Source: Candidatus Aenigmatarchaeota archaeon
Lineage (GTDB): Archaea > Aenigmatarchaeota > Aenigmatarchaeia > PWEA01
Assembly: GCA_046539325.1 (NCBI GenBank)
Contig: JBKHHD010000002.1
Coordinates: 30,426 to 62,425 of the forward strand
Length of the DNA: 32,000 nucleotides
Direction: 5' to 3'
Below the pieces are notes generated by a model that saw only the letters and a list, made by a program, of their open reading frames with translations, had not been told where the DNA came from and made no database searches. This document shows, in pieces, positions 8,904 to 32,000 of the stretch (position 1 is the stretch's first letter; each line of letters opens with the position of its first letter). Both the position numbers and the translations under genes were made by a program.

Positions 8904-9518
8904 ATGTCTTACTCCTTTGACTTCGATCTTACAAAGATATCTCGTTCCTTCTTCCGCGAGCTCGCAAGCTTCACGGAGAAGAGCGAGGTTCACAGAAAAA
9001 CAGGGAACGCCTCGAGGAAACTGGCGAAGAAAATGAAGGTCAACGAGTTGACCGGAATTCCTATGACCGATGCGATAACTCTGGTCGAAGACATGATAGA
9101 CGTCCACGCGAAGAATCTCGCCCATGAGGACGAGTTCCAGGAGACGGAAAACAGGGCTCTTTTCCTTCCGCACTGCTCCAGGAAACACATGGACGGAGAG
9201 TGTGAAGCGAGCTTCGACCCCGAACTGTCCTCCTACAGCTGCAGAAAGTGCAGCGAGGACTGTCCCGTTAAGAAGGCAACGGAGATAGGAGAAGAAAGGG
9301 GCTACGATGTGTTTGTTTTCCCAGGAGGTTCCTGTATACCAAAGGTACTGGCGAAGAGGGACTACGATGGTGTAGTCGGTGTTGCATGTTCTGAGGAGAT
9401 AAAGCTCGGGATAAAAAAACTGGAGGAAGCAGGTGTCGAATACCAGGGAATACCTCTGCTGAAGAACGGGTGTGCAAACACGGAGTTCAACATAGAGACG
9501 CTCAAGAAAAAGCTTTAA
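8904..9518 (+). CDS. Cys-rich DUF116-like protein
   Basis: LFLPHCSRKHMDGECEASF..SYSCRKCSEDCPVKKA...VFVFPGGSCIPK..GVVGVACSEE matches my recollection of the DUF116 pattern. ATG follows the upstream TGA by 1 nt, with GGAGGGTGAG as SD. Confidence 0.65.
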   Translation: MSYSFDFDLTKISRSFFRELASFTEKSEVHRKTGNASRKLAKKMKVNELTGIPMTDAITLVEDMIDVHAKNLAHEDEFQETENRALFLPHCSRKHMDGECEASFDPELSSYSCRKCSEDCPVKKATEIGEERGYDVFVFPGGSCIPKVLAKRDYDGVVGVACSEEIKLGIKKLEEAGVEYQGIPLLKNGCANTEFNIETLKKKL

Positions 9519-9543
9519 AATACTTACGCGAAAGTGTTCTACG

Positions 9544-9873
9544 ATGAAAGTAAAGACGTTGGCTGTGCTCGTGCTGGTAGTTTCTGCAACCTTGATGGTA
9601 TCGGGATGTGTAGACTTCCTCAGAAGGACAGCAGACAGGGTCACAGGAGGCGAGTGTATAGAGCTTGAGAAAAAGGCAGAGACCAGACCGGGCATGGACT
9701 GCAAGTGTTATCCGACTGACTTCATTCCAGAAGGTGTCAAGAACCAGACAGATATGGAGCAACTGGAAGGAAAGTGCTACTGTACGTGCTCTTTCGAGGA
9801 AACCGACGAGGAGGCCAATATATCGATAGTCGAGGGCCCTGATGGAAACACGATAATTTCTCAGCTCACATAG
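9544..9873 (+). CDS. Small secreted Cys-rich lipoprotein-like protein
   Basis: MKVKTLAVLVLVVSATLMVSGC has a lipobox-like VSGC. Six further Cys residues. Confidence 0.55.
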   Translation: MKVKTLAVLVLVVSATLMVSGCVDFLRRTADRVTGGECIELEKKAETRPGMDCKCYPTDFIPEGVKNQTDMEQLEGKCYCTCSFEETDEEANISIVEGPDGNTIISQLT

Positions 9874-11044
9874 ACTTCTTCATAATTTCTCTCATAACCA
9901 CGGTGGCGTATCTACCGGGCTTCAGAGAGAAGGATACTTCCACTGTTGCTTTACCTTCAACTTCCTTTACTTCAGTCACTTCAAAATCCGGTTTGATAAG
10001 GACAGCTCGTAATGTACCCTTTGAAGAAAGTTCTCCGAAGTCTTTGAATTCGAAGTCCTTGAGCTTTACATTGTCTTCCTGTAATGCTTGCTCGAGGTAG
10101 CTGTCGAAGCTTTGCGAGGAAAAGTTGGTTCCGTATCCCGGAACCTTACCAGGAAAGTTCCTCGCATCGTGTCTCAACAGCCGTGATACGGCTTTGTTGA
10201 AAACATAGGACTGGTAGGCATGGACGAAAAGTCTCCGTAGGTTTTTAGGGAAAACCTTGAAGACCTTGATCCAGTCCTTGTCCGTGGAAGGATTCAGACC
10301 GTTTAACTTTTTAATAAGATCCCTTTCGTAGGTAAGAGGTCTTGGAAAGTATTCCAGTGCTTCATCGTAGTTTTTATTCTCTTCAAGCCTTGATCTCGCT
10401 TCTCTGAACTCCTGTTTCTCCGTGGAAAAAGTTTTGAAAAGGTAGGTTTCAACGGCTTCCCTGTAGTTTCTTCTGAGAAGCTCTTTTCCAACCAGGTGTG
10501 TGATAGGTCTCTTACCGCCGAATCTCTGTAGCCCATAGTAGTTGGGTACACCCTCCTTGATTTCTTCAGCGAGCTCTTGTAGCCTTTCCCTACACTCCTC
10601 CAAACCTACATCTATCCCTCTTAATGTTATGGTAAATCTGTTTTCCTTCAGGTCGCCGTTTTTGAGAGAACGGGAAACCTTCTTGACAGCTTCCACCTCT
10701 AGGCCTTCTTCGTCCAGCTTCACCTCCTCCCCATCCAAGCCCTCTAAGGTCACGAACTGGGTCGTACAAGCTCTCTTATCCTTCAAACCAGCGTATCCTA
10801 TCCTCTTCTTTGAGAGACGTAGCTTTGACGAAATTCTGTCTATGGCCTCAAAGGTGGTCATATTCCGCTTCTTGAGCTTGCAAAGAAGGAAGTTTCCGCC
10901 CTCCTCAAGGTCTATGGGAACTTCTTCGACTACGAAATCCTCAGGTTTGGTCTTCAGCCTTCCTCCTATACCCGGAGAATCAGTTCCGTACTCCTCGATT
11001 CCGCAGAACTCTTCAAGATCGAAGTCATTGGACATAATCAACAT
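9866..11044 (-). CDS. truD: tRNA pseudouridine synthase D (TruD/Pus7 family)
   Basis: GIGGRLKTKPEDFVVEE and GYAGLKDKRACTTQFVT (catalytic Asp motif). Length 392 aa. Confidence 0.9.
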   Translation of the reverse strand: MLIMSNDFDLEEFCGIEEYGTDSPGIGGRLKTKPEDFVVEEVPIDLEEGGNFLLCKLKKRNMTTFEAIDRISSKLRLSKKRIGYAGLKDKRACTTQFVTLEGLDGEEVKLDEEGLEVEAVKKVSRSLKNGDLKENRFTITLRGIDVGLEECRERLQELAEEIKEGVPNYYGLQRFGGKRPITHLVGKELLRRNYREAVETYLFKTFSTEKQEFREARSRLEENKNYDEALEYFPRPLTYERDLIKKLNGLNPSTDKDWIKVFKVFPKNLRRLFVHAYQSYVFNKAVSRLLRHDARNFPGKVPGYGTNFSSQSFDSYLEQALQEDNVKLKDFEFKDFGELSSKGTLRAVLIKPDFEVTEVKEVEGKATVEVSFSLKPGRYATVVMREIMKKSM

Positions 11045-23836: not shown

Positions 23837-25480
23837 CCTCACTCTGAATTACTTTACGCTGTTAAGGCGTGCCGGCGTAGTTGAGCCTTGGACGTTCTGA
23901 CGTCCAGCGATGACCAAAATTCCAGGCACGAACAAATGATGAGGAAGGGAGTTCAATCTCTTCTGATGTAGGAAACCCGAGAATGAAACCGAGAGGTTTC
24001 AGTAGCCAAATGTAGTTGGTGTGACGCGAGGACTAGTTTACTCTCTTACCAATTCCGGTTGATCCTGCCGGAGGCTACCGCTATCGGGATTCGATTTAGC
24101 CATGCGAGCCGAGGGTGGTTTATCCGCCCGGCGGACTGCTCAGTAACACGTAGTCAACCTCCCCTCAGGACGAGTATAACCCCGGGAAACTGGGACTAAT
24201 ACTCGATAGGAAAGGGATACTGGAATGTTCCCTTTCTGAAATGTTCCGACGCCTGAGGATGGGACTGCGGTGGATTAGGTCGTTGGGGGTGTAACGGACC
24301 TCCAAGCCTATAATCCATACGGGCGTTGAGAGACGGAGCCCGGAGACGGACTCTGAGACACGAGTCCGGGCCCTACGGGGCGCAGCAGGCACGAAACTTT
24401 TACAATGCGTGAAAGCGCGATAAAGGGATCCCGAGCGCCTTGGCATTGCCAAGGCTTTTTTGGAGTGTAAAAAGCTCCACGAATAAGGGGTGGGAAAAAC
24501 GGGTGCCAGCCGCCGCGGTAATACCCGTGCCCCAAGTGGTGACCACGATTATTGGGCCTAAAGCGTCCGTAGCCGGCCGGATGGGTCCTCAGTGAAATCC
24601 TGCGCTAAAACGTAGGACTTGCCGGGGAAACTATTCGGCTTGGGACCGGGAGAGGTCGGGGCTATTCCTGGGGTAGCGGTAAAATGCTGTAATCCCAGGA
24701 AGAGCGCCTGTGGCGAAAGCGCCCGGCTGGAACGGCTCCGACGGTGAGGGACGAAAGCCAGGGTAGCGAAGGGGATTAGATACCCCCGTAGTCCAGGCCG
24801 TTAACGATGCCCGTTTGGTGTAGCATCTCCTACGTGGAGGCGCTGTGCCGTAGCGTAGGTGTTAAGCGGGCCGCCTGGGGAGTACGTCCGCAAGGATGAA
24901 ACTTAAGGGAATTGGCGGGGAAGCACCACAAGCGGTGGAGGCTGCGGTTTAATTGGATTCAACGCCAGGAACGTTACCAGCGCTGACAGCATGATGACGG
25001 TCCGCTTGAAGAGCGTACCTGAAGCGCTGAGAGGTGTTGCATGGCCATCGTCAGCTCGTACTGTGAAGCGTCCGGTTAAGTCCGGTAACGAGCAAGACCC
25101 ACATCCCTAGTTGCTATCGTGTCCTTCGGGACGCGAGCACTCTAGGGAGACCGCCTCCGACAAGGGGGAGGAAGGTGTGGGCGACGGTAGGTCTGTATGG
25201 CCCGAATGCGCTGGGCTACACGCGGCCTACAATGGTCGGGGCAGCGGGTTGCGACTCCGAGAGGAGGAGCTAATCCCAAAACCCGGCCTTAGTTCGAATC
25301 GAGGGCTGAAACCCGCCCTCGTGAAGCCGGAATCGCTAGTAAGCGAGGGTCACTATCTCTCGCTGAATACGTCCCTGCTTCTTACACACACCGCCCGTCA
25401 AGCCATCCGAGTGGAGCCTTGATGAGGCTTGGGAAATTTTCTCAGGTCTAATCAGGGCTCCGCAAGGAGGGCTAAGTCGT

Positions 25481-26294
25481 AAATTAATTGCGACCTCGGA
25501 CCGAAAGGTTCGAGAAAACCCGGCTGTATGCTGGAAACTCCACTCATACCAGGCTGCCGGAATTGTCCTAAGCTTTTTATCAAAAGCACGGGCAATGTAA
25601 GGTAGAGAGGTCTGGTCGTTGTGGACAATCAGCAGGGAAGCTCACTACTCTGACCTGAAAAGGTGAGGTATAGCCCCTCAGAGACTGCACGCCGGCCCCT
25701 AACGGAGCTGATTGGATGTCACAAAGCTACCTCAAGGGAATACTTCACGATGCCACGGAAAGGAAGTACACCTACCGAATTTCACAAAAGAACAAAGATT
25801 TCATTGAAAAGCTGGCCGAAATGATTCGAGATCTGGGCAAAAAAGCCTGGATTTAAGAAGAAGGCAACCGAGGAATATACGTAGTGGAATTTAGTAAGAG
25901 TGGTCTCAAAAAGCAAGAAATCGAAACAAGACAAGAAAAAAGAGACTATATCCGTGGCTACTTCGACGCTGAAGGAAGCGTTCCAAGGAGTCCTGAAGTG
26001 CGACCTTACATTTACTTCGCACAACAGGACAAAAAAGACCTAAAGAAAGTGAAGAAATTCATTGAGGAGTTTTAAATTGAAACAGGCAAACTCCACAGAC
26101 CCAGTAAGGAGTCTGATCCAGATTACTGGAGATTTTACATCTCCACAAAGGATCACAAAAAATTTGCCAGAGAAATAGGCTCTTGGCATCCAAAGAAAAA
26201 TCAGCTGCTGAGGGAGATGAGACAGTCCACGCCTCGATGCGAGTCGGGGTGACACTTTCAAAGTGTCCGAACACCATTATGGTGTGAGCATGTG
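25481..26294 (+). mobile_element. 814-nt intron in the 16S rRNA gene (group-I-like; junction ambiguous by 2 nt because of a duplicated AA)
   Basis: P1-like pairing GUCGUAA (25476-25482)/UUGCGAC (25488-25494) with a U:G wobble at the splice site. Last intron nucleotide is G 26294. GAAA-capped hairpin at 25495-25514. R-like UCAGAGACUGCAC at 25678-25690 and S-like GAUGCGAGUCGG at 26236-26247. Two P9-like hairpins at 26251-26285. Confidence 0.7.
25716..26252 (+). pseudogene. Double-motif LAGLIDADG homing endonuclease ORF with two in-frame TAA stops
   Basis: One frame reads MSQSYLKGILHDAT...KKAWI*EEGNRGIYVVEF...YIRGYFDAEGSV...KKFIEEF*IETGKL...WRFYISTKDHKKFAREIGSWHPKKNQLL. Stops are at 25854-25856 and 26073-26075, with no frameshift. 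Confidence 0.75.
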
Positions 26295-26960: not shown

Positions 26961-29929
<2,969 letters not shown>

Positions 29930-30033
29930 GCATTCCAGCCTGGGCTAAAGGTGGATCTTGAAATCAAGGAACACAAACTTAGAAACAGAGGTTTCCAAGA
30001 CTTGGCGTATAGCAGCTGAAGCTCTTTTCTCAT

Positions 30034-30045
30034 AAGATTTAAATT
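30034..30045 (+). promoter_or_regulatory. RNase P RNA promoter TATA box
   Basis: AAGATTTAAATT ends 23 nt before the first base of the P1 helix (30068). Confidence 0.5.
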
Positions 30046-30067
30046 GTTAGAATCAAATGTTCCTACT

Positions 30068-30523
30068 GTGGTGAGCTGGAGAGGGACCACCGGGATAGTT
30101 TGGATGAGGTTGTTTTCCTTCACAGGAAACACCCTTGTATTCCCGGAGGAAGCTCCTCCCACCCGTTGTGCTGTAAAAGTGCAACGAGGCCCAGGCTCGC
30201 AAGAGTCCGTCCTGAGAGGGAACGGAACAGGGAACAGAAACGATACCCCCGCGCTGGAGCGTTGAAAGCTGAGAAGGCACGGAGGGATGGAACGTACCCT
30301 GATCTGGGTGGTGCAAGACCAAATAGGCTCCGGGAAATGGATGTGCCTTGCACGTCGGTCTCTTGGAGCGGGTAGGTCGCTATTTGGAGTCCGTGAGGGC
30401 TTCAAACTTGGAAGCATCTGCTTCCGAGAAGATGAATGTCCCGAAGACCTGACATGGACGCGGACTTCGTCCACGTCGTTTTTGGGTCCGAACAGAAGGA
30501 GGGCTACTCCCAGCACACCACAC
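30068..30523 (+). ncRNA. rnpB: RNase P RNA (archaeal type-A-like)
   Basis: P1/P2 pairs GTGGTGAGCTGGAGAG (30068-) with CTCCCAGCACACCAC (-30521). CR-I GGAGGAAGCTCCTCCCAC. P4 is AGC[U]CCUCC/GGAGGGCU with the conserved bulged U. GCAAGACCAAATAGG and GGGTAGGTCGC blocks are present. CR-IV AGATGAATG. CR-V ACAGAAGGAGGGCTAC. Confidence 0.9.
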
Positions 30524-30554
30524 TATTTTCTCGCTTGGATTTTAGGCACTACAG
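30521..30554 (+). repeat. Direct repeat copy 1 (overlaps the RNase P RNA 3' end)
   Basis: CACTATTTTCTCGCTTGGATTTTAGGCACTACAG. Confidence 0.8.
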
Positions 30555-30755
30555 AACTTTACGCTTTATTCTTCTGTAATATCTGAGGAACAAACCTATA
30601 ATAATCGAAAAGGCAGTAAATATCAGAAAGTAATAAGGTGGAAACAGCTCTTCGGGTGGGGCTGTTGGAGCTGGTCTTGTTTCGAGACCCAAAGTAAGTT
30701 GAAATAAGAGAATAGTGACGAATATAGTTAACAAAATCAAGGCCTTTCTCTGCAT
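30549..30755 (-). CDS. Small hydrophobic protein (2 TM), possibly the tail of a disrupted larger gene
   Basis: 68-aa ORF. The same frame stays open and hydrophobic for 45 codons upstream with no start codon (see findings). Confidence 0.35.
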   Translation of the reverse strand: MQRKALILLTIFVTILLFQLTLGLETRPAPTAPPEELFPPYYFLIFTAFSIIIGLFLRYYRRIKRKVL

Positions 30756-31113
30756 CTTGTCGTAACCTGTAAATATAATATAAATTACTAAGACAAGACC
30801 AGCAAGTGGTAGTATGAGAGTAGAAGTAAAGCCGACAACAGGTCTAAGGGTTGAAGCTATGAAACCAAGTAAAAATAAAAAATCCGAAAACTAAGAAGGA
30901 TTTTCCGGCTTTCTCTGTAAAGTTTCTCATAATTATGTTTCAGTGTTTCTATTTAATTAATTTATTAAGGCACTACACTTCCTTAATCTCTATATTCCAC
31001 TCATCTTTAAGCTTACATACAGGTTATCTTCTGTCCTTCCACCCTCCTCAAATAAATACCTAAAATCTCATTGGTTGGTATTTCGCCGGCTTCACATGAC
31101 ACTCATAACCAGG

Positions 31114-31365
31114 TTATTCATTCATTCTAATTACTCTTTTTCTACTTGTTGAATACCTCTTGAACCCTGCATAGAGTAAGTTGGCAAGTCCCACTGTCCA
31201 CCATCCCAAGAATAGGAATATCAAGAAGTGTGCTAATCCACTGCCATAAGAATATCTCTCCATCACTACTTTATGGTGAGCATCGGTCTTCACTTTCCAA
31301 CCCTCTTCTATTAGGTCATTCTTCTTGTTTTCTAACTCCTCCTTTGAGTCAACAGTCAGAGCCAT
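31114..31365 (-). CDS. Small protein with N-terminal soluble domain and C-terminal TM hairpin, hypothetical
   Basis: Strong SD GGGGGAGGTGAT 6-7 nt upstream of the ATG, complementary to the 16S 3' end. TM region LAHFLIFLFLGWWTVGLANLLYAGF. Confidence 0.6.
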   Translation of the reverse strand: MALTVDSKEELENKKNDLIEEGWKVKTDAHHKVVMERYSYGSGLAHFLIFLFLGWWTVGLANLLYAGFKRYSTSRKRVIRMNE

Positions 31366-31622
31366 TTATCTATCACCTCCCCCTTGACTTATCTATCATA
31401 CTTGCATCTTTTACTAAAAAAGGTACTAAAGATATAAAAGATTAAGTTTCTTAAAATTCTTCTTCTGAACTAGGAAAGAACTAGAATATACGCCCAAACC
31501 AATACCCATAGAAGAATAAAGGATTTCAAGGACTACAACTTTTAAATAGATTCGTTTGTAAAACTATAGTGGAAGGTAACACAGGCCAGTGATCTAGGCG
31601 GTGAGGTACTTCCAGAAGATTG

Positions 31623-31656
31623 CACTATTTTCTTTCATGGATTTTAGGCACTACAG
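31623..31656 (+). repeat. Direct repeat copy 2
   Basis: CACTATTTTCTTTCATGGATTTTAGGCACTACAG. 30 of 34 positions are identical to copy 1, including a 19-nt exact core TGGATTTTAGGCACTACAG. Confidence 0.8.
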
Positions 31657-31722
31657 GTAGAGCTGCGGTGTTGTCTTCGGGTACCCAATGACTTAAGTAT
31701 CTGTCTTCTTCAATACAAATCC

Positions 31723-32000
31723 ATGGAAAGTGAGAAGGAGTACATCAAGCCCGATATTGTAACATCTTCTGTCAGGAATGTTGAGCCGCTTAAGGAGAAG
31801 GACAAGGTTCCAGTTCTGAAGAAGGATGGAAGTCCGGAGCCTGGAGACGTAGCCGTTGCGAAGGTTGTCGAGGAAGGCGGAAGCTACGACGAGGCAGAGC
31901 TGGAGGGCGGTGAAATGGTAAAGCTGGAAGAGGGTGATTTAATTGTGGGCGTCCTGGGCGTGAGAAAAGCTGTCCGTGGCTTTGCCTCAAGAATACCTGA
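31723..32000 (+). CDS. 5' part of a hypothetical protein (runs off the window end)
   Basis: ATG 31723 opens a frame with no stop to base 32000 (MESEKEYIKPDIVTSS...GDLIVGVLGVRKAVRGFASRIP). It is absent from the track because it has no stop. Its acidic composition resembles the rest of the window. Confidence 0.55.
   Translation, partial: MESEKEYIKPDIVTSSVRNVEPLKEKDKVPVLKKDGSPEPGDVAVAKVVEEGGSYDEAELEGGEMVKLEEGDLIVGVLGVRKAVRGFASRIP

Follow-up and report, generated by a model that had tools for sequence, protein, structure and literature searches.

The DNA analysed here, which we call the window, is the whole stretch of 32,000 nucleotides (G000:C2:30426-62425) taken from a Candidatus Aenigmatarchaeota genome of 715 kb, which is distributed over 10 contigs and is 91% complete. 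Those of its relatives that have a name are Candidatus Aenigmatarchaeota metagenome-assembled genomes from soda-lake sediment. The right-hand part of the window carries the two large rRNA genes, the gene of the RNase P RNA (rnpB), a direct repeat of the end of that gene, and the start of a conserved protein gene that we call gene X. Their features, in the order of their position, are as follows.

24052-25525: 16S rRNA gene (Rfam).
26962-29927: 23S rRNA gene (Rfam).
30071-30518/9, plus strand: rnpB, intact.
30498-30554, plus strand: first copy of the repeat (attL-like), composed of the final 22 nt of rnpB, a T-rich trailer of 23 nt and a box.
30540-30554, plus strand: box 1, TTTTAGGCACTACAG, with its core at 30543-30553; its reverse strand provides the stop codon of a 68-aa ORF.
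30549-30890, minus strand: hydrophobic reading frame of 113 codons that has no start codon; the annotated 68-aa ORF is 30549-30755.
30555-31599: lineage-specific interior of the insert, 1045 nt long, with a GC of 0.361 and less than half of it coding.
30967-30977, plus strand: box 2, AAGGCACTACA, with one mismatch; its flanks are unlike those of either copy of the repeat.
31114-31365, minus strand: orphan gene of 83 aa, with a soluble N-terminus and one membrane helix; GGAGGTGA lies 8 nt before its ATG.
31521-31539, plus strand: degenerate box 3, GGATTTCAAGGACTACAAC, followed by the TATA-like TTTTAAATA at 31540-31548; no flank similarity.
31533-31644, plus strand: right end of the insert, including a pseudo-3' end of rnpB; homologous to a stretch before a box in the relative G007.
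31600-31656, plus strand: second copy of the repeat (attR-like), made of the decayed rnpB pseudo-3' end (31600-31621), a trailer and box 4.
31642-31656, plus strand: box 4, part of the second copy, with its core at 31645-31655.
31683-31722, plus strand: conserved promoter-proximal stretch, 81-89% identical to the stretch before gene X in G004 and G007.
31723-32000, plus strand: start of gene X, a conserved 348-aa gene that bounds a variable slot; its orthologues are 62-81% identical.

The rnpB gene is an archaeal RNase P RNA gene by its match to RF00373, which reaches 85.7 bits against a curated cut-off of 84 and covers the full model (positions 1-288), with the P1 pairing kept. Given this full-length match and a 3' strand that is the family consensus, the gene has remained intact after the duplication of its end. 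The gap that separates it from the 23S rRNA gene is only 143 nt long (29927-30071), with no 5S gene in between; the contigs of G004 and G007 end about 450 nt upstream of their rnpB, which fits the same linkage to an rRNA operon.

The end of rnpB is really duplicated. A repeat search and blastn gave a single direct repeat of 57 nt, 30498-30554 against 31600-31656, with 45 of 57 positions identical and a spacing of 1102 nt. One of its copies overlaps the 3' end of an RNA gene, since it takes in the last 22 nt of rnpB (a part in which it is identical to the family consensus), and the repeat then runs 35 nt past the end of the gene. The earlier note had described a 34-nt repeat starting inside the rnpB end and identical at 30 of 34 positions: the repeat is there, and the count has to be corrected to 31 of 34 between 30521-30554 and 31623-31656, in exact runs of 11 and 19 nt. 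Its impression that the sequence preceding the second copy still resembles the rnpB 3' end was also right, as 14 of the 22 in-gene nucleotides match between the copies. The pseudo-end of the second copy no longer pairs in the manner of P1/P2, and every difference within the best-kept 32 nt is a transition, a pattern that AT-biased decay would also give. We considered a second, decayed rnpB copy and rejected it: the similarity stops at the last 22 nt of the gene, and there is no Rfam match even at E up to 5.

Both copies end in a short box that is common in this genome, so the flanks of the box were scored separately. Over the 42 nt upstream of it, 30 positions match for this pair, against a maximum of 21 among 548 other pairs of boxes from the same genome (binomial P about 1.6e-9). 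When the box is left out, the local alignment still reaches a score of 18, where shuffled sequences give 7.5+-1.1 and none of 1000 comes up to this value. The earlier note would have given up its reading if the repeat similarity were no better than chance; it is far better. The idea that it merely reflects two common boxes, which alone account for 15 of the 19 bases in the longer exact run and of which there are 19 copies genome-wide, is rejected by these flank figures. A repeat made by the assembly is the other form of this explanation; the copies differ at 12 positions, which is not what a collapsed or duplicated read path gives, and the two flanking proteins are recorded on 2 contigs each, one of them of 222 kb. 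We give chance and artefact together next to no credence.

The box itself deserves a closer look, as it changes how the repeat has to be read. It is a letter-perfect, non-palindromic element of 15 bp, TTTTAGGCACTACA(T/G), and a sequence logo of 76 instances confines the conservation to exactly these positions. The 715-kb genome has 19 exact copies of TAGGCACTACA, where about 0.3 would be expected and where the reversed control has 0. Each of the nine family genomes has 8-20 exact copies, and the 32 other genomes of the order or class have 0-1. The sites are mostly intergenic, either some 35-90 nt before the start of a co-oriented gene or wedged between convergent gene ends, and many of them occupy orthologous positions in different species; one such position lies 23-39 nt after rnpB in the source genome and in G002, G004, L086 and L087. 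Over-representation, intergenic placement, orthologous positions and restriction to a single clade are what an operator-type site would display, and we read the box as a putative protein-binding site of this type. The 19-nt exact run that the earlier note had noticed between the copies does exist, but it is not evidence for the core of an attachment site, because the box is family-wide and normally follows rnpB in relatives. The same holds for the "partial core copies" reported inside the insert: they are present at 30967-30977 and 31521-31539, and we rejected them as extra attachment-site remnants, as they are instances of the genome-wide box whose flanks are not rnpB-like and match those of the two repeat copies no better than shuffles do.

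Several other roles of the box were considered. Contig C10, of 23 kb, holds 8 of the 19 copies of the source genome. It also carries a canonical-looking replication origin (L093:10600-10900), beside orc1/cdc6 (9301-10599, minus strand) and with PolB near, in which several ORB-like repeats (TTTCACGTGGA... with a GGGGGT or ACCCC run) surround a stretch of GC 0.29. The box is not an origin recognition box, as the canonical ORBs next to orc1/cdc6 and their AT-rich unwinding stretch differ from it in sequence. Pairing with a stable RNA was rejected as well, complementarity to 16S, 23S, rnpB or the spacer being at most 7 nt. In six of the nine family genomes we observed a conserved gene of 49-55 aa (MAFIREKEINGNKYLYLVKS...), which in the source genome lies at C10:10943-11089 on the minus strand (L093:10943-11089). 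In all 6 of these genomes a box is found 9 nt before its start codon, and in several a second one sits on its stop codon. The model of the 49-aa protein, three strands and a helix, has a pLDDT of 89.6 and no significant match in the PDB. We regard this protein as a candidate reader of the box.

The DNA between the two copies is lineage-specific. Its GC of 0.361, against 0.454 for the genome, is found in only 0.68% of windows of 1045 nt, which bears out the AT-richness that had been noted by eye, and the two small ORFs (30549-30755 and 31114-31365) are indeed both on the opposite strand. The longer frame around the first of them, 30549-30890, is probably a truncated membrane-protein gene, to judge from its hydrophobic translation. 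Neither the 68-aa ORF nor its 113-codon frame has a homologue in the 8 other family genomes or in a set of 5.8 billion proteins; the 83-aa gene finds only itself in that set, and nothing in the 8 other family genomes or in IMG/VR. For both ORFs, Pfam and PHROGs return noise only, so that the search of virus and plasmid databases which the earlier note had proposed brought no support for its view of the insert. The insert matched no family of phages, plasmids or defence systems, and its DNA has no match elsewhere in its own genome or in relatives. It is thus an outlier in composition in which the cargo of a mobile element is not recognisable. A viral origin was rejected, the rnpB end, the 83-aa ORF and the integrase presented below (L083) all being without a match in IMG/VR. 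We also rejected the right end of the insert as the end of a repeated element, for which the family has no second copy.

The absence of an integrase, which the earlier note had remarked, extends far beyond the insert. A family profile detects no remnant of one between the repeats, and no PF00589 gene is found anywhere in the 91%-complete genome, so not even one of the XerA type. A scan of the source genome for tRNA-end fragments, as marks of other scars, was uninformative, since its hits were intron-bearing tRNA genes missed by ARAGORN. That program finds only 11 tRNA genes in the genome, many of the genes being intron-bearing, such as the tRNA-Leu-like ones at C2:90934 and C2:24692.

The slot between rnpB and gene X is variable. 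Gene X, whose closest relative is P0003 (81% identical) and of which a distant homologue is labelled DUF1611 domain-containing in its source record, is preceded by different content in every species examined, and the relatives are without this insert. From rnpB towards gene X, the slot contains the following.

G004: box, then an AI-2E-like permease.
G007: 540 nt, then a pseudo-end, a native-type trailer, a box and a permease.
G002 and L086: box, then a 396-aa gene (gene read in G002).
L087: box, HAD hydrolase, permease.
G006 and L085: about 400 nt.

The comparison with empty sites that had been called for covered other species: species-level relatives lack the insert and carry other genes in the slot, and for a G006-like species both an occupied and an empty form are seen. 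Since G004 and G007 have a permease in this slot, we asked whether the insert is a decayed version of it. We rejected this, as neither tblastn nor blastn finds a trace; a homologue of the permease, 48-50% identical, is located elsewhere in the source genome (contig C4).

The right end of the insert aligns with the slot of G007 at 65% identity over 127 nt, and for 31533-31644, with the box excluded, the score is 18 against 8.4+-1.3 (0 of 1000 shuffles). The pseudo-ends of the two genomes have 5 derived positions in common that set them apart from every functional rnpB end. On this account the event is either old or was carried on related elements, and the presence of the second copy in G007 suggests an old one. 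The two genomes are well diverged, third codon positions of gene X being only 41% identical between them. In addition, the sequence that directly follows rnpB in G007 resembles, including a TATA-like stretch, the leader of the integrase contig L083 (score 12 against 4.3+-1.7; 2 of 2000 shuffles). The chain formed by this leader and the shared pseudo-end places the right end of the insert with elements of the L083 kind.

The preservation of this region in two diverged species can also be looked at in another way. The second copy may be a functional module, in which a TATA-like box, some 75 nt of old rnpB-derived sequence, a T-tract and the box are under selection as a small RNA or a regulatory region, with the interior as fast-evolving accessory DNA. 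The 120 nt before box 4 are about 65% identical to G007, where the third codon positions of the adjacent gene reach 41%, both species have the TATA-like TTTTAAATA some 100 nt ahead of the T-tract, and the box is conserved at orthologous positions across species. Yet the module is present in two species only, it coincides with no conserved ORF or Rfam family, its pseudo-end has no P1/P2-like pairing, and a pattern of differences limited to transitions in the best-kept 32 nt is also expected from AT-biased decay; the orphan interior and the integrase evidence would be left unexplained. We consider this explanation quite unlikely. We are equally doubtful of its combination with an integration, in which the displaced rnpB end would have been co-opted: out of the scar, 31540-31656 would have become a small module, transcribed or regulatory, that selection preserves in two or more species.

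An integrase-bearing element is found at the same rnpB end within the genus. Scanning metagenome contigs with an exact 28-mer of the rnpB end led to L083, a contig of 1415 nt that opens with 41 nt of the rnpB 3' end exactly as it reads in G006 and L085, lineage-specific bases included. L083 shares its sample of origin with L085, and the two part directly after ...CACACC: the native trailer and gene X follow in L085, another leader and the gene given next in L083.

L083:103-1386, plus strand: tyrosine recombinase of 427 aa, starting 61 nt after the rnpB 3' end.

This protein matches PF00589 with 68 bits (cut-off 27.1) over positions 3-168 of 172, and it has a C-terminal zinc ribbon. It is far below the Xer equivalog cut-offs, and its ORF is whole, unlike in integration of the SSV type, where the attachment site is within the integrase gene and insertion splits it. 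It is solely in this related contig that an integrase gene lies next to the rnpB end; the source genome has no homologue of it at all.

At E up to 1e-20, 95 of the 301 genomes of the class encode homologues of this integrase, frequently more than one, and none of the 8 other family genomes does. Of 32 loci that were fetched, 12 have a co-oriented tRNA gene that ends no more than about 500 nt before the integrase gene; for 10 of these 12 the distance is about 40-130 nt. An RNA gene end, a short leader and an integrase, in this order, are therefore a signature of the family, and L083 has this signature at rnpB. One such locus is an island of 11.3 kb in G011 (L123:100-11504; G011:C1:261500-272900), which follows an intron-bearing tRNA gene, is bounded by a 17-nt repeat of the tRNA end, is AT-rich (GC 0.278 against 0.347 beside it) and has mixed cargo. 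The island carries the integrase, an AIR-synthase-like gene, an 846-aa PLD-type nuclease-like gene, a winged-helix regulator and DUF2085. In G006, an integrase fragment of 110 residues adjoins tRNA genes, and integrase genes are thus seen to decay in this genus.

With this, the proposal of the earlier note, an integration scar at the 3' end of a stable-RNA gene, gains independent support in its central idea. It does so because the duplicated flank is statistically real and the insert is a lineage-specific outlier in composition, because, in the same genus, an rnpB end that two contigs share letter for letter is followed at 61 nt by a PF00589 integrase in L083 and is empty in L085, and because the family of this integrase typically sits just after tRNA genes. 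Three corrections apply: the exact core and its partial copies are no evidence of an attachment site, the event is either old or was carried on related elements, and the left junction is unlike the integrase-side one of other loci, with nothing in the insert that can be recognised as mobile-element DNA. We judge it probable, though well short of certain, that a genomic island inserted at the rnpB 3' end and decayed to what is now 30555-31599.

The sequence of events may have been as follows. The insert would have arrived in the same way as the L083 element, by an integration whose attachment region took in the trailer and the box in addition to the gene end. The first copy would then restore a working end to rnpB, and the second would be the displaced, non-functional end with the original trailer and box. 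The integrase and most of the cargo would have been deleted later. Two observations complicate this scheme. The left junction in the source genome consists of a native-like trailer and box, unlike the leader found on the integrase side in L083 and G007, so that an extra step must be assumed; a plausible route would be the re-insertion of a circular intermediate that had acquired the pseudo-end, the trailer and the box. Then, the trailers of the two copies are identical at 31 of 34 positions, which calls for a recent event, gene conversion or selection. Near-identical trailers together with a second copy in the diverged G007 would in turn be reconciled by related elements that arrived separately, by gene conversion or by selection on the second copy.

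A rival explanation dispenses with an integrase. Circular DNA, foreign or rearranged, with a stretch homologous to the rnpB end, the trailer and the box could have entered by a single homologous crossover, or the unit that goes from the rnpB end to the end of the next gene could have been duplicated in tandem, its first copy then decaying or being replaced. A crossover through a shared stretch of 57-130 nt gives exactly such a repeat, trailer and box included, the genome is without an integrase, and the repeat spacing (1102 nt) nearly equals the unit that runs in G004 from the rnpB end to the stop of the permease (about 1100 nt). Against this, the interior has no trace of the permease at the protein or the DNA level and instead carries, on the opposite strand, an 83-aa gene with a good ribosome-binding site, and this route accounts neither for the integrase that L083 has at this junction nor for the L083-like leader of G007. 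We hold this route to be improbable, and return to the integrated island in what follows.

Islands and proviruses that are inserted by tyrosine recombinases in the 3' part of tRNA or tmRNA genes are classical (Williams 2002, as cited in PMC8371274). Archaeal cases have been reviewed (PMC8371274, 2021), with tRNA genes, protein genes and intergenic sites as targets; this review mentions neither the RNase P RNA gene nor DPANN archaea. The present locus is like the tRNA and tmRNA islands in several ways: a direct repeat takes in the 3' terminus of a stable-RNA gene, which is kept whole, lineage-specific and AT-rich DNA fills the space between the copies, and, in related loci, a co-oriented integrase directly follows the RNA gene. 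It is unlike them in that the target is rnpB, no integrase or recognisable element gene is left, and the repeat extends 35 nt past the gene to include a host box of regulatory type. Attachment in a stable-RNA gene other than those of tRNA and tmRNA is shared with the phage phiEf11, whose site is in ffs, the 4.5S RNA gene of its bacterial host (PMC12540744, 2025). That prophage is bacterial, intact and inducible, and has an identical core of 27 nt, whereas we deal here with a decayed archaeal remnant and a diverged repeat.

The G011 island offers a comparison from the same order. Its integrase is of the same family as that of L083 (36% identical, residues 4-422), its tRNA gene, integrase, cargo and 17-nt repeat of the RNA gene end follow one another in this order, and its GC, like that of our insert, is below that of the host flank. 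It differs in being ten times larger, with an intact integrase, a short exact repeat and a tRNA target. In Sulfolobus genomes, remnants of integrated elements that have no integrase are marked by partial copies of tRNA genes. The locus described here would be similar in that a displaced end of an RNA gene is the only lasting mark of an old integration, although the lineage and the target gene differ.

To our knowledge, the mobile elements of DPANN archaea have barely been described. In full-text literature searches on integration sites, no paper came up in which rnpB is the target; tRNA, tmRNA and 4.5S RNA genes are already known as sites, and, from the sequences compared here, rnpB looks like a new landing site for mobile DNA islands. 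The scar itself is small, gene-poor and without a notable function. If this reading is true, a zinc-ribbon family of tyrosine integrases that is widespread in the class has added rnpB to its targets in this genus, and islands in genomes of about 0.7 Mb can be seen to shrink to a scar of 1 kb. The end of rnpB, followed by a pseudo-end, would then be a practical marker for accessory DNA in these genomes.
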